A DNA stretch of 64,000 nt from Octopus vulgaris. Its lineage: Eukaryota. A program made the position numbers and the translations under genes. The notes below the pieces were generated by a model. That model saw only the letters and a list, made by a program, of their open reading frames with translations, ran no database searches and was not told the DNA's origin. Shown here in pieces: positions 17,655 to 61,917 of this stretch. Numbering within the stretch: position 1 is the stretch's first letter; the number at the start of each line of letters is the position of its first letter. The stretch covers positions 42,656,001-42,720,000 of the forward strand of contig OX597835.1 of NCBI GenBank assembly GCA_951406725.2, in the 5' to 3' direction.

Positions 17655-17694
17655 TTATAAAACTTCTTTCTTGAGTTTCTTCTTGTGGCTGGCA
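17655..17694 (-). CDS. Unidentified minus-strand gene, terminal coding exon H (F-ASHKKKLKKEVL*)
   Basis: Acceptor tgtctttcag. TT+T gives Phe, then 12 codons and TAA (17655-17657). AATAAA motifs follow within about 25 nt on the minus strand. Confidence 0.72.
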
Positions 17695-18305
17695 CTGAAA
17701 GACATAAGAATATGCAAATATAAATGACAGTGAAGCTGTGAGTACGAATGAAGGGGTTTGCAAGAGAAATAAAGTTTGTAAATATATAGGTGTTGTACAG
17801 TTGCTAGGTGCTGTGACTAAAATTATGGTACAATAAGAAAGATGATAATGATGATGAGGAGGAGGAGGATGAAGAGGAGGAGGATGAAGAGGAGGAGGAG
17901 GATGAGGAGGATCATCATCATCATCATTTAATGTCTGTTTTCCGTGCTGGGATGGGTTGAATGGTTTAGCAGGAACTGGCCAGCCAAGGAGCAGTTGAGA
18001 CATCAATTGTCTGTAGTGGCTTGGTTTCTATGGCTGGATGCCCTTCCTGATGCCAACCACTTTACACAGTTCTTGCTAGGTGTTTTTGCATGCCACCAGC
18101 ATTGGCACCAGTGCCCTTTATGTGGCACCAACACATGTAAAGGACAAGCCTGTATGTATGGATGACAGCAATTCTACTTAGTTTGGCACATCTTCTTGAA
18201 TACAGTAAATTGCCAAAACAGACATTGGAGCCCAATGCAGGCCCTGGACACATCGGATCTTGTCAAAACTGTCCAAACCGATGCCAGCATAGAATATGGA
18301 TGCTA

Positions 18306-18355
18306 AATGATGATGATGGGGATGGTGATGATGATGATGGGGATGGTGATGACGG

Positions 18356-18390
<35 letters not shown>

Positions 18391-18484
18391 GGGATGGTGA
18401 TGACGGTGATGATGATAGGGATGGTGATGACAGTGATGATGATGATGATGATGATGATGATGGTGATGATGGTGATGGTGATGG

Positions 18485-18516
<32 letters not shown>

Positions 18517-18803
18517 TTGGTGAGGATTATGATGAGGATGGTGATGATGACAAGGAGAAGGATGGTGATGATGATGATGAAGATGATGATGATGGGAATG
18601 GTGATGATGATGATGATGATGGGGATGATGATAATGATGATGATGGGAATGGTGATGATGATGATGATGGTGATGATGGTGATGACGGTGATGATGATTC
18701 AAGCAAATTTTTAATTTACCGACAACAACACAACAACAATGACAGCAGGGACAGCAGCAACAACAACAATAACAACACAACAAGAACACTAGCCAAAGCA
18801 ACG

Positions 18804-18835
<32 letters not shown>

Positions 18836-19060
18836 AAGAAGAAGAAGAAGAAGAAGAAGAAGAAGAAGAAGAAGAAGAAGAAGAAGAAGAAGAAGAAGAA
18901 GAAGAAGAAGAAGAAGAAGAAGAAGAAAAAGAAGAAGAAGAAGAAGAAGAAGAAGAAGAAGAAGAAGAAGAAGAAGAAGAAGAAGAAGAAGAAGAAGAAG
19001 AAGAAGAGCAGCAACAACAACAGCAGCAGCAGCAGCAGCAACAACAACAACAACAATAAT
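18306..19060. repeat. Compound microsatellite (GAT/GGT)n-(CAA)n-(AAG)n-(CAG/CAA)n
   Basis: Includes a near-pure (AAG)n run of about 200 bp at 18806-19007. Confidence 0.98.
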
Positions 19061-57870: not shown

Positions 57871-58944
57871 ACGCATGTCCTCAACGATCACAGCCCATGT
57901 TTCTCTTCACAGTTTCCCTTTAGATACACAGGTTCTAAATGATTCTTTACTGGGCCTCTGAGATGGATGGGAGGGAAGGAGGAAGATATTCTCAAATAGG
58001 AGACCTGGCTGGAATGCTTGCAACAAAGAGCCACCCTTCACTAAAGGTATCCAAGTTTCCAGGTAGCAATGTTAAACAGGGTCATGAAATGAGCCTATTA
58101 TCCAGGCAGGCCATGGCGGGATTTCAATACAGAATCTAAAGACCCAGAACAAATACTGCAAGGCATCTGCTCCAAAGTTCTTTACCAATCCTCCACCCTG
58201 GATTGCCACTTGTTTATTGATCATCATCATCATCATTTAACGTCCGCTTTCCATGCTAGCATGGGTTGGACGGTTCAACTGGGGTCTGGGGAGCCCGAAG
58301 GCTGCACCAGGCCATTCAGATCTGGCAGTGTTTCTACAGCTGGATGCCCTTCCTAACGCCAACCACTCCGAGAGTGTAGTGGGTGATTTTATGTGCCACC
58401 GACACAGGTGCCAGACGAGGCTGGCAAACGGCCACACTCGGATGGTGTTTTTATGTGCCACCGACACAGGTGCCAGACGAAGCTGGTGAACGGCCACGCT
58501 CGGATCCCCGTAAAGTATAAAAGACCAAGTTGACCTCAGCAAGAATTGAACTCAGAAAACAGAGAACTGGAACAATTATCACGAAGCATTCTGTCTGATG
58601 TTCAAATAACTTTGCTAATTAGTCACCACCAGTGTTTGTTGAAAAATCTTACTCAGCCGCTCTATACATGGGCACAGGTATATAGTTAATAGTTTCAGGT
58701 GGCGAGCTGGCAGAAATGTTAGCATGCTGGGCGAAATGCTTAGCGGTATTTCGTCTGCTGCTACATTCTGAGTTCAAATTCTGCCGAGGTCAACTTTGCC
58801 TTTCATCTTTTTGAGGTCGATTAAAATAAGTACCAGTTATGCACTGGGGTCGATATAATCCACTTAATCTGTTTGTCTGTCCTGGTTTGTCCCCTCTATG
58901 TGTAACCCCTTGTGGGCAGTAAAGAAATAAGATATATAGTTAAT

Positions 58945-59395
58945 CTGATAAAGAGGATTGATGGCTTCAATAGCAGAGTCCTGAGAACCATTGAGAACAT
59001 CAGATGGTACCATCATGTTTCCAACAAAGAACTGTGTACATGCACACATCAGCCTGCAGCTTCCCAACTCATAGCTGTCTGTTGCATGCACTGGTATGGA
59101 CATGTCCTCCATCTCTTGCTAGGTCATTCTACCAGAGTTTTACTCTCATTCAACACAGGAACTGCAAGCTACAAGAAGCCTTGTGGTAGGCCCTGCACCA
59201 GACGGTTGGACGTAATTGGGGAAGATTTCCAGGGTCTTGATGTCACCTTGGAAGAGAAGATGCAGAGGACTAGAATGGAACCACCAGCAAGGGATCTGGT
59301 TGGCTCTACACATGATGACATGTTTGAGACCAGTAACCTGGAATGACCTCTGTCTCCCATCAAGCAAGGGCATGAAGCAAGCAAACAAGTAAGGC
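58945..59395 (+). mobile_element. Third RTE-like LINE 3' fragment, decayed
   Basis: RIDGFNSRVLRTIENIRWYHHVSN...WYGHVL...PCGRPCTRRLD. Related fragment at about 21465-21700. Confidence 0.8.
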
Positions 59396-59544
59396 CAATT
59401 GAGGCCCTTATAAACATGATCAAAAGAACATTTTTACAATTAAAAGCAGATCAGGAAACGATGCTGTGAAACTGTCTTAAAATTGCCCAAGTTGTTTATT
59501 TTACTTATTCAATGGTCGAAGGGAAAACAGTTACTTTTACTTAC

Positions 59545-59613
59545 ATTTATGGCATAAGAATCCAGTTTCACAAATATCTTTTGCTTCGTTGATGCTTTTT
59601 CAAAGTCTTTGGC
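59545..59613 (-). CDS. Unidentified minus-strand gene, exon B (AKDFEKASTKQKIFVKLDSYAIN)
   Basis: Acceptor attgcag, donor gtaagt, 69 nt, phase 0-0. Confidence 0.8.
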
Positions 59614-59921
59614 CTGCAATTATAAATCAAAGATTAACGATATTAAGTAGAATTGTTGTTTTTTCTTTCAGTAAATGATCTCCTAATTAGGCAAGAAGTT
59701 ATTAGATAATAGACTTAGTGGAAACATTGGGGATCAGGCAGCAGGCGGTGGGGGGATGGAAGGGCTGTGTCAGCACTACACTGGTCCTCATTTTCAGCTG
59801 AATAAACTGGAGCAACAAAAAATGAAATAGCCTGCTCAAGAACATCATATGCTACTTGGTTTAGGAATTGCATTCACAACCTTTTCATTGTGGGCTCAAC
59901 ATCTGAACCACTTAGCTAAAT

Positions 59922-60191
59922 CTATCTATCTATCCGCTCAGTCGAAGTCGACTCTCGGTCACTCGTTGGATCAGTGTCCTCCAGTCAGTTCTATCCTGGG
60001 CTGCTTCTTTCAGATTGGCTATGTCCATTCCGGTATCCCTCTTGATGGTGTCAAGCCAGCGGGTTCTTGGTTGGCTTCTTCCTCTCTTGCCACTGACCAT
60101 TCCGAGCATGATGTCCTTCTCCAGGGATTTTCTCCGCATAATATGACCGAAGTATGCCAATCTATGCTTGGTGATCCTAGCTTCTAGCAAC
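59922..60191 (-). mobile_element. RTE LINE 3' fragment with 11-bp TSD
   Basis: Same peptide, (GATA)n tail, and flanking direct repeat cttagctaaat at 59911-59921 and 60192-60202. Confidence 0.93.
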
Positions 60192-61830
60192 CTTAGCTAA
60201 ATAGAATACGGGTATTCCACTGTACCGATCCTATTCTTGACTAAAATCCTTACTCACAACTCTCTAAAAATGTATTAACTCTTTTGTTACCATATTTCTG
60301 TTGGAATCCACTGGTTTTGTTTCAGTTATTTTTAGAAATAATAAAGAATTTAGTAAAAAAGCTTTATTGTTATTAAGCTGATATTTGGCACAAAATAGCA
60401 AATTTTGATGGAAGATTAATTTAAAACAGGAAGTTTGTATCACAGAACTTGGGGGGGGGATGCTAATCTCTGGCAGGACAGTATCAAAAGGATCAGCTCT
60501 TTTGTTACTATATTTTTATTGAAATGCACCGGTTGTGTTTCAATTAATTTTTAAAATAAAGATTTTAGTAAAATAATTCTGCTTTGCGGTTTTTCATCTG
60601 TCACTATATTCTGAGTTCAAATTCTGCCAAGGTCGACTTTACCTTTCATCCTTTCAGGGTTGATAAATTAAGTACCAGTGAAACACTGGGGCTGATATAA
60701 TCAACTTGTTCCCTCCCCCAAAACTGCTGCCTCTGGGGTAAAATTTGAAATCAATATTAGATTGATGAATATAACATGATTTAACATAAAATTTCGGTGA
60801 AATGTTTTAATTAAGATCCCTTTAAAAACAGGAAGCTTGTATGAGGACCAGGAGTGGTTGGAATGAAGAGTTAACCTTTTTGTTTCCATGTGTCTCTTGA
60901 AATCCTCTACCTGTTTTAATTAATTCTGACAATAATGAAGAATTTGGTAGAGTATTTTTATTATCATGCTAATGTTTGGAACATAAACGAACAAGAAATT
61001 TTGATGGAAGGTTTTAATGTAAAACACTTCAAAACAGGAAGCTTGCATCATTGAACTCGGGGTTATTTTAGGCAGGTTGGTATCCAAAGGGTTTAACTGA
61101 CGTTTGAAATATGGAAGATTTTTGATAATTTTGAAACAGGAATTTTGCTTCATAGAATCAGGTGTGATCTCAGATGTCAAAAGGGTCACAAAGATCTAAT
61201 CCTTTAGCATTTAAACCATCTATATCCAGCCCAAATATTCTATCCGTTTTATGTTCAAACTGTCAAAATCTGGCCTCTTCTACCTACCCTACAATGTCAT
61301 TCTAAAAATGAAAAAAATTCACATCATCAAAATCTCAAGGCTCTGAGACAAAGAGCATGGTTAATTCAAAACAATGTGAATATGTCTTGCAAACAACTTG
61401 CACATGCAAGTGCTACCTGCCGAAAACTCCACATACTGGAAACCAGCAAATGTATGGGGTCGTCAGGAGAGAGTGCGCGCTGTTTTGCGTCTTACCTCTT
61501 GACGGCATCAATGCACACCGCCCCCCCCCCCCTCACTGATATGAGGCCCCGCTTGCTAGATCAACTGGTTATCAAATAAAGCTCAATATTCTTCTAGCCA
61601 TCGCTCATCGTCTCTTTTTAACCAAATCCAGTGGTTAGCCTTCTCCACTGTAGTTTGGATATCGGTCATAGTGGTATTGACTTTACAATGAGTTAGGCCT
61701 AACGATAACAACTGTTGTCTCACACTTTTGAGAGAGTAATCTGAATGCTAAAGGTTTAATTAGTAACGTTAACTAAACTAAACCAATAATAAATTGCCAA
61801 AAAGATAAAAAGAAACCCTGGAATACTTAC

Positions 61831-61917
61831 AAGTGCCATTGATGCTTTCTTCTGTTGTATGGATTCTTGTTCTTCCGTAAACAAGCTCTCTTGACTTATT
61901 TCTTCAGATGGTGGAGA
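61831..61917 (-). CDS. Unidentified minus-strand gene, exon A (SPPSEEISQESLFTEEQESIQQKKASMAL)
   Basis: Acceptor ctcttcag, donor gtaagt, 87 nt, phase 0-0, open frame, unique sequence among repeats. Confidence 0.8.

Follow-up and report, generated by a model that had tools for sequence, protein, structure and literature searches.

Within a 64,000-nucleotide stretch of the Octopus vulgaris genome (hereafter the window), eight short open islands on the minus strand had been proposed to form a hidden gene of no recognized family, convergent with the synaptotagmin-1 gene (Syt1). Are these islands exons of a real gene, how far does that gene extend, and what might its product do?

A spliced gene convergent with Syt1

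Direct splicing of the eight islands (Table 1) yields 708 nt, encoding 235 amino acids and a single stop, in one open frame with compatible phases. All eight acceptors are AG and all seven donors are GTAAG(N). The original prediction had described this chain and its phases correctly; the C-terminal motif that it quoted lies in exon 7, the neighbouring plus-strand exon does match synaptotagmin-1, and most exons are indeed missing from the open reading frame track (exons 6 and 7 are the two of eight in their listed frame; stop-to-stop list, 60 aa). A simple filter finds 36 exon-like open islands in the window, which use 28 different donors, and catches just five of the seven true internal exons. 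The chain exceeds chance expectation because it matches residues 932–1166 of an annotated O. vulgaris protein of 1166 aa exactly, residue for residue. It is also identical at 233 of 235 positions to the O. sinensis model and at 207 of 235 to that of O. bimaculoides, the latter without a gap. Exon 7 has a single strong match in the O. vulgaris genome; one paralogue candidate (E 0.83) contains an internal stop and was rejected. This is a single-copy, spliced, protein-coding Octopus gene. Two AATAAA motifs just past its stop codon are likely to provide the poly(A) signal, which would make the 3′ untranslated region very short. An Rfam scan of the window returned no matches.

Some of the joins are seen directly in contigs from sequencing runs, which carry no strand, level or tissue information. 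A contig from run X1, which like every run labelled RNA is so classed by automated guess only, joins exons 4-5-6-7: exon 5 occupies positions 1133–1200 with no differences, exon 6 follows directly, and the loose ends fall at the 3′ end of exon 4 (at the exon 5 acceptor) and the 5′ end of exon 7. The DNA-like run X16, in contrast, continues through introns that the X1 contig has spliced out. The spliced form occurs in one of the four runs examined. Of the pieces listed for runs X3 and X12, none is spliced (X12 has only low depth, in exon 6 bins); the exon 7 stretch is present in several runs, and X3 is without depth in the exon 5 bin and the main exon 6 bin. The original prediction had named junction reads as a check, and this holds for three of the seven joins (4–5, 5–6 and 6–7) in one contig and finds no echo in the listed pieces of the other runs; joins 1–2, 2–3, 3–4 and 7–8 rest on the three protein models described below.

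Table 1. Positions of the features in the window; residues refer to the 1166 aa model and identities to O. bimaculoides.
Feature	Position	Length (nt)	Strand	Phase	Residues	Identity	Remarks
Exon 1	61917-61831	87	minus	0-0	932-960	26/29	Acidic/Ser stretch
Exon 2	59613-59545	69	minus	0-0	961-983	20/23	
Exon 3	53907-53869	39	minus	0-0	984-996	12/13	
Exon 4	32246-32142	105	minus	0-0	997-1031		Start of best-predicted short helix pair (1013-1044)
Exon 5	26565-26498	68	minus	0-2	1032-1054		
Exon 6	22243-22105	139	minus	2-0	1055-1100	36/46	Pro/Val/Lys-rich basic linker; least conserved of the eight
Exon 7	19248-19088	161	minus	0-2	1101-1154	52/54	Predicted helix and aromatic motif; most conserved part
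Exon 8 (last coding)	17694-17655	40	minus				Basic tail and TAA stop; ending common to all three species models
Two AATAAA polyadenylation-type signals	17632-17649		minus				6 and 18 nt past the stop; sole two in 2 kb past the stop
Syt1, last coding exon	2367-2552		plus				Neighbour gene, convergent; E 3e-26

Gene model and annotation

The gene is real and poorly characterized, as had been supposed, and an annotated protein, a spliced contig and conservation all back that claim; it is not hidden. It is already annotated in three Octopus species, with models of 512–1255 aa: CAI9739105.1 in O. vulgaris (‘hypothetical’, 1166 aa), XP_036367993.1 in O. sinensis (‘titin-like’, 512 aa) and XP_014775265.2 in O. 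bimaculoides (‘trichohyalin’, 1255 aa). Nor does it have eight exons. In this genome, 21 exons account for the 1166 aa model, with an open frame throughout; the last eight of them lie in the window, and the others extend past position 64000, where the 5′ end had been expected. Coding exons number at least 21, or about 24 if the ones found just in the O. bimaculoides model are counted.

The genome contains, as the O. bimaculoides model does, an earlier first coding exon (14 kb upstream), two additional exons and an extended exon 3. The 1166 aa model is therefore likely to start too late and to skip exons, and the gene start probably lies 82 kb outside the window. The internal start exon used by the 512 aa O. 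sinensis model is also present in the O. vulgaris genome. The full-length product would be a highly charged protein of about 1170–1290 residues that is predicted to be mostly disordered. Literature searches, supplements (which possibly use the locus tag) aside, found no paper naming any of six accession numbers, and papers on ‘octopus’ with ‘trichohyalin’ included none about this gene, as judged by title or the start of the abstract.

Searches for relatives

The original prediction had not recognized a family, and none emerged: Pfam finds no families in the three full proteins (1166, 512 and 1255 aa) at E up to 1. At the level of single exons, Pfam was run on six of the eight (exons 3 and 8 were left out because they encode under 20 aa) and gave one match below the cut-off, DMAP1 (E 0.23), which was rejected. 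The search for homologues that had been suggested as a check thus recovered the Octopus models and nothing outside Octopus. Word-indexed searches matched 2 of 23 candidates for exon 7 (against proteins of 94–2000 aa) and 2 of 1839 for the C-terminal 208 aa (281–896 aa), all of them Octopus proteins, and none of 4862 for residues 841–1166 (641–2041 aa). A phmmer search with the 53 aa of exon 7 against 1.84 billion representatives gave two matches, the O. sinensis protein and a four-copy repeat protein (29% identity), which we rejected as chance. A 35 aa protein clustered with the O. sinensis model has no evident likeness and was set aside.

Structure-based searches gave a similar picture. The ESM Atlas offered no usable feature match and no language-model neighbour, and its structure matches, short helices with TM ~0.5, were rejected. 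Exon 7 has no match in the PDB by sequence, and none of 25 Foldseek matches to the low-confidence 512 aa model reached E up to 0.001. Three weak PDB profile matches (E 0.004–0.03), to drebrin, ensconsin/MAP7 and a U1-70K fusion, all fall on a block rich in Glu, Arg and Lys (E/R/K) and are explained by its composition. Known ciliary proteins were matched neither by sequence nor by fold in the Pfam, PDB (sequence and profile) and Foldseek searches run. On present sequence comparisons the gene appears to be an orphan, with no homologue beyond Octopus detected in the collections searched.

Protein architecture

AlphaFold models the 1166 aa protein with a mean pLDDT of 43.6 and confident helices only at residues 361–514 and 1013–1044. 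The first of these spans the central E/R/K block, in which helices at 361–421, 426–446 and 452–514 are interrupted at Gly-containing linkers. The block is 83% E/K/R and free of proline, and has an excess of opposite charges at i/i+4 (z 6.8) and a deficit at i+3 (z −3.0); the equivalent block of O. bimaculoides also has an i/i+4 excess (z 4.4). We predict that these ~155 residues form a stable single alpha-helix (SAH), a rod of ~23 nm by the textbook helix rise. The protein has in common with drebrin and MAP7/ensconsin an extended E/R/K block that lacks proline, pairs its charges at i/i+4 and is predicted with high confidence to be helical, and one study ascribes a single alpha-helix to drebrin (PMC12203971). 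Unlike drebrin, MAP7, trichohyalin and titin, the octopus protein has no detected ADF-H, MAP7, S100/EF-hand, Ig or fibronectin domain.

Titin carries Ig, Fn3 and kinase domains and trichohyalin an N-terminal S100/EF-hand; with no Pfam family at E up to 1 and no predicted strands, we reject both identities. Strands are absent from both AlphaFold models, and no hydrophobic segment was found (best 19-residue Kyte–Doolittle mean, 0.77).

Identity to O. bimaculoides is 51–62% over residues 1–800 and 87–88% over residues 801–1166, with 63 of 66 residues identical at the end; at the sequence level, the C-terminal third is strongly conserved between species (87–95%). The motif there that had looked folded is modelled in two AlphaFold runs as a helix of pLDDT ~60 followed by a stretch below 50, from alignments 2–3 sequences deep, and is better described as a low-confidence predicted helix than as a domain. 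A hydrophobic-moment test placed the amphipathic moment above that of shuffles in none of seven predicted C-terminal helical segments.

A candidate X-box and a possible role in cilia

A tight match to the X-box, the binding site of RFX factors, is found 291 bp upstream of what is likely to be the first ATG, with five other ATGs in between. The same pattern occurs at eight sites in the 414 kb examined, three at gene starts and five elsewhere, and therefore has a chance of ~0.6–1% per 500 bp, a figure that climbs to a few percent because five patterns were tried at two starts. The other two gene-start sites belong to both BBS5-family genes of the same genome, likewise ahead of the first coding exon; there the ATG follows the start of the site by 29 and 52 bp, and one of the two sites has 11 of 14 letters in common with the site of the orphan gene. 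Their sites are within 60 bp of the ATG, as against 291 bp in the orphan gene, which is also without a conserved ciliary domain. A third control, IFT20, has no tight X-box near its ATG exon. The site in the orphan gene was read in one species and matches neither the strict vertebrate nor the restricted fly pattern, no X-box match accompanies the internal start exon, and a degenerate pattern (1.3 per kb) is uninformative. Two papers describe RFX control of ciliary genes in animals (PMC10530576; PMC2375033), and one of them holds that, without conservation, such a site ahead of an ATG has no predictive value (PMC2375033).

The X-box match above the likely start suggests that the protein probably works in cilia or sperm tails. 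Our preferred reading, to which we give about an even chance, is that the gene encodes a fast-evolving structural spacer or tether protein of cilia or sperm flagella. An RFX factor would bind the X-box above the first coding exon and switch on the long isoform, in which the single-helix rod and disordered linkers would set a distance. At the C terminus, the conserved helices, the aromatic motif and the basic patches may fold upon binding to axonemal or peri-axonemal partners, for example microtubules. A shorter product of 512 aa, begun at the second, internal start exon, would retain the docking half only.

Alternative explanations

One alternative is a disordered scaffold outside cilia, perhaps acting in the nucleus or the germ line or cross-linking the cytoskeleton in the manner of trichohyalin, with an X-box match present by chance or serving a non-ciliary RFX programme; RFX factors also act on non-ciliary targets. 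Four basic clusters resemble nuclear localization signals (829, 866, 1086 and 1158), three of them in or beside the conserved C-terminal third, single-helix blocks are frequent in non-ciliary proteins, as the drebrin and MAP7 matches illustrate, and the distance, species and pattern caveats on the X-box point the same way. The database names ‘trichohyalin’ and ‘titin-like’ would also fit, but they come without a family match, and the tight X-box is rare and found at two of the three ciliary control genes. We regard such a scaffold as possible, if on the unlikely side. Another possibility is that the protein belongs to a known ciliary family of animals, for example KIAA2012 (DUF4670), as an orthologue that has diverged strongly, in which case the function would be that of a ciliary spacer and its identity would differ. 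Disordered proteins quickly lose detectable similarity, and KIAA2012, an uncharacterized protein, is presumably alike in size, in its charged helical block and in its short aromatic C-terminal motif. According to PMC12772120, KIAA2012 is poorly characterized and is distributed along the motile cilia of five human tissues. However, none of the three octopus proteins matches DUF4670 (PF15709) at E up to 1, the phmmer search returned only the O. sinensis protein and an unrelated repeat, no language-model neighbour was found, and no homology is shown; a DUF4670 search of the genome also gave no match and, as its controls were equally without one, is uninformative. We consider this identity improbable.

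That the gene is neuronal and functionally tied to Syt1, through common regulation or antisense 3′ overlap, is much less probable still. The two genes are convergent, and the exon 7 signal in run X3 without exon 5 depth could represent unspliced or opposite-strand RNA, or DNA. Yet the stop codons are 15,102 bp apart and 144 kb separate the likely promoter of the orphan gene from the end of the Syt1 coding sequence; with two AATAAA within 18 nt of its stop codon and the stops this far apart, mature transcripts need not overlap, and position is the sole tie between the genes. As for a pseudogene or islands that resemble exons by chance, the uncertain RNA status of X1 and the single run with the spliced form would leave room for an artefact, but the open frame across 21 mapped exons, its preservation at 88% identity in another species and the exact exon–exon joins in the X1 contig have already refuted it in substance, and we give it next to no weight.

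Implications

The gene is real and apparently an ordinary orphan, with no described function for any of its models, and it is already in databases; its discovery is therefore not news, and it opens no long-standing question by itself. Our analysis adds a corrected model (additional exons, two starts and a beginning that probably lies 14 kb farther upstream), shows that the labels ‘titin-like’ and ‘trichohyalin’ are without family support, and provides an X-box lead that resembles the BBS5-family sites.

A narrower form of the ciliary reading, which we put forward as speculative and rather unlikely, is that the gene forms an octopus- or cephalopod-specific ciliary or flagellar family of its own, RFX-controlled, with a single-helix ruler, a short conserved docking module and long and short forms from two promoters, as a lineage-specific part of sperm tails or sensory cilia. 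Should the X-box lead hold, the product would be a protein of cilia or sperm tails, restricted to one lineage and placed within the ancient RFX programme, and would be useful for the study of cephalopod sperm, statocysts and sensory cilia and of how orphan genes enter old structures.

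A spliced octopus gene convergent with Syt1

The minus-strand gene in this region is real, already annotated and uncharacterised. The original prediction had pieced it together from eight exons, and a strand reading checked by script reproduced those exons, their AG/GT borders and phases, and a summed length of 708 nt, which encodes 235 aa and ends in one stop. AG stands at 8/8 acceptors and GTAAG(N) at 7/7 donors, and the introns, of 1.4 to 21.6 kb, abound in microsatellites and dispersed repeats. Two AATAAA signals, 6 and 18 nt 3' of the stop, are the sole ones in the 2 kb downstream. 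Testis-type transcripts tend to have a very short 3' UTR, with which this gene end is weakly compatible.

Exons of the gene within the window, from strand reading and script check
Exon	Coordinates	Strand
1	61917-61831	minus
2	59613-59545	minus
3	53907-53869	minus
4	32246-32142	minus
5	26565-26498	minus
6	22243-22105	minus
7	19248-19088	minus
8 (with stop)	17694-17655	minus

Convergence with Syt1 holds: a plus-strand exon at 2367-2552 matches synaptotagmin-1 (E 3e-26), and the two stops lie 15,102 bp apart. Past the Syt1 stop, the plus-strand stretch from 2553 to about 10150 is very AT-rich, with few dispersed repeats and many AATAAA words, and is likely the Syt1 3' UTR (up to about 7.5 kb).

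Although described as hidden, the gene already has three database models. Exon 7 as a query led to two proteins out of 23 candidates, O. sinensis ‘titin-like’ (512 aa) and O. bimaculoides ‘trichohyalin-like’, whose clusters include P0004 (CAI9739105.1, O. vulgaris hypothetical, 1166 aa) and P0005 (XP_014775265.2, O. bimaculoides, 1255 aa). Exact peptide matches placed P0004 on 21 exons that run between ext 132487 and 17655 (ext, window coordinates carried on past 64000 into neighbouring G000:C22; contig position minus 42,656,000). The walk passed over two residues, both at exon joins, and residues 932-1166 are the window's exons. Comparison with P0005 revealed more of the gene in the O. vulgaris genome (G000): further coding matches (ext 118006 and 116101), an extended exon 3 and an acceptor above the annotated start. 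A candidate first coding exon (18 nt, ext 146461) shares 5/6 residues with O. bimaculoides, is unique within the 131 kb searched and agrees in phase with the following exon; the internal start exon of the O. sinensis model is present at ext 97732. The gene therefore likely extends over about 129 kb and has about 24 coding exons; the protein models suggest that it also has two starts.

Several other features lie within the introns. The 21.6-kb intron between exons 3 and 4 contains a 42-nt plus-strand island (46541-46582) that has one open frame between a pyrimidine-rich AG acceptor and a GTGAGT donor and is followed by more CpG-rich sequence; the interval 46480-46730 matches the genome once. 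The island may belong to a nested plus-strand transcript, as a micro-exon or 5' exon, or may have a regulatory role. A second, non-repetitive-looking island in this intron (about 40100-40700), is rich in purine and pyrimidine tracts and carries splice-like words on either strand, which suggests a promoter or untranslated exon. Between exons 4 and 5, a 13-bp minisatellite (27698-30776; about 239 copies at 95% match) accounts for stop-free frames of >1000 codons at 27584-31274. Long plus-strand frames in the upstream introns (L002, ext 76534-79143; L008, ext 135834-137663) read by eye like LINE endonuclease/reverse-transcriptase remnants.

Transcript evidence

Four sequencing runs (X1, X3, X12 and X16) were examined over 20100-27690. 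A 1503-nt contig from X1, a run whose RNA nature is a guess from the tool, joins exon 5 (record 1133-1200) directly to exon 6 (1201-1340) with 0 differences; at the contig's loose ends stand the last bases of exon 4 on one side and the first of exon 7 on the other. Junction support therefore exists for three of the seven joins (4-5, 5-6 and 6-7), all in one run; no spliced pieces were seen among those listed for X3 and X12. Contigs from X16, which is DNA-like, run through the intron borders of exons 5 and 6. A retrocopy is an unlikely source of the spliced contig because exon 7 has one strong match in the genome.

Among the runs listed, the exon 7 stretch (19080-19260) occurs in 20, from 9 studies. 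Depth in X3 is absent from the exon 5 bin and the main exon 6 bin, and there the stretch may be of unspliced, opposite-strand or DNA origin.

Relatives and protein architecture

For the family that went unrecognised in the original prediction, the searches made gave relatives in Octopus only. Word-indexed protein searches found no homologues outside Octopus, nor did phmmer with exon 7 against 1.84 billion representatives, in which a second match was an unrelated repeat protein; Pfam, PDB sequence, ESM Atlas and Foldseek searches returned nothing informative. This lack is notable because the two octopus species that are further apart share 52/54 residues of exon 7. 'Orphan' is thus meant only with respect to the collections searched, in which squid and cuttlefish may be thinly covered. 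The database labels titin and trichohyalin fail every domain test, and none of the papers searched mentions any of six of the gene's accession numbers.

P0004 is rich in Glu (17%), Lys (13%) and Arg (8%) and lacks a hydrophobic segment. Its AlphaFold model (three-sequence alignment; pLDDT 43.6, pTM 0.25) has 0 strands; two of its helices are confident (361-514 and 1013-1044), and a third, at 1110-1146, is weaker. The 512-aa form gives the same picture. Disorder, a single-helix rod and short C-terminal helices are predicted. Residues 362-517 (E/K/R 83%, 0 proline, i/i+4 opposite-charge excess z 6.8) bear the signature of a single alpha-helix, predicted to be broken into three pieces, and it is here that drebrin and MAP7 give weak PDB matches.

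Identity to O. bimaculoides is 61% over residues 1-360, 51% over 361-517, 62% over 518-800, 87% over 801-931, 88% over 932-1166 and 95% over 1101-1166, and therefore selected function lies mostly in the C-terminal part originally found. The exon 7 motif, first read as folded-looking, is modelled as a weak helix and would more probably act as a short docking element than form a domain. An amphipathic-helix test on the protein was negative.

An X-box match above the likely start

The hypothesis of a role in cilia or sperm was set down ahead of the X-box scan. The tight pattern has a two-base AT spacer; a degenerate form, RYYNYY N1-3 RRNRAC, appears in PMC2375033. The gene has a tight match (ext 146765-146752) 291 bp upstream of its likely first ATG, with five other ATGs in between; the site does not match two stricter patterns, and the internal start has no X-box match. 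As controls, three ciliary-family genes were found in the genome and 150 kb was scanned around their starts. In both BBS5-family genes a tight site immediately precedes an ATG exon (at 29 and 52 bp), but the surroundings of the IFT20 ATG exon contain none. The 414 kb hold eight tight sites, three at these starts (the gene and both BBS5-family genes) and five elsewhere. The chance of a tight site is 0.6-1% per 500-bp stretch, or a few percent given five patterns and two starts. A fly study cautions that an X-box without conservation is not predictive (PMC2375033).

The two BBS5-family genes are separate loci on one contig (G000:C9, 86.00-86.04 Mb and 61.32-61.35 Mb; L024-L035), each with several exons above the Pfam cut-off and an X-box just above an ATG exon, a possible BBS5 duplication. 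About 90 kb above the gene's start, a near-palindromic tight X-box adjoins a microsatellite (L018, ext 236677; G000:C22 about 42,892,677) and may mark another gene's promoter; no clear first exon was identified there.

Possible function

With the splice joins in hand, an artefact is scarcely credible, and functional coupling to the convergent Syt1 is very improbable. The product may resemble KIAA2012. It could be a diverged member of a known ciliary family such as this one, with the same function as in our favoured reading. KIAA2012 itself localises to cilia, according to PMC12772120, but DUF4670 is not matched, and we consider this descent unlikely. A scaffold working outside cilia is a plausible but less likely alternative to the favoured reading.

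We give roughly even chances to the favoured reading as a whole, in which RFX would drive expression in ciliated or sperm-forming cells, the conserved C-terminal third would serve as the docking part, and the rod and linkers would provide spacing. If this lead is right, the product, which matched no known family in the searches above, would work in the manner of other large RFX-target proteins that belong to motile cilia and are likewise uncharacterised.
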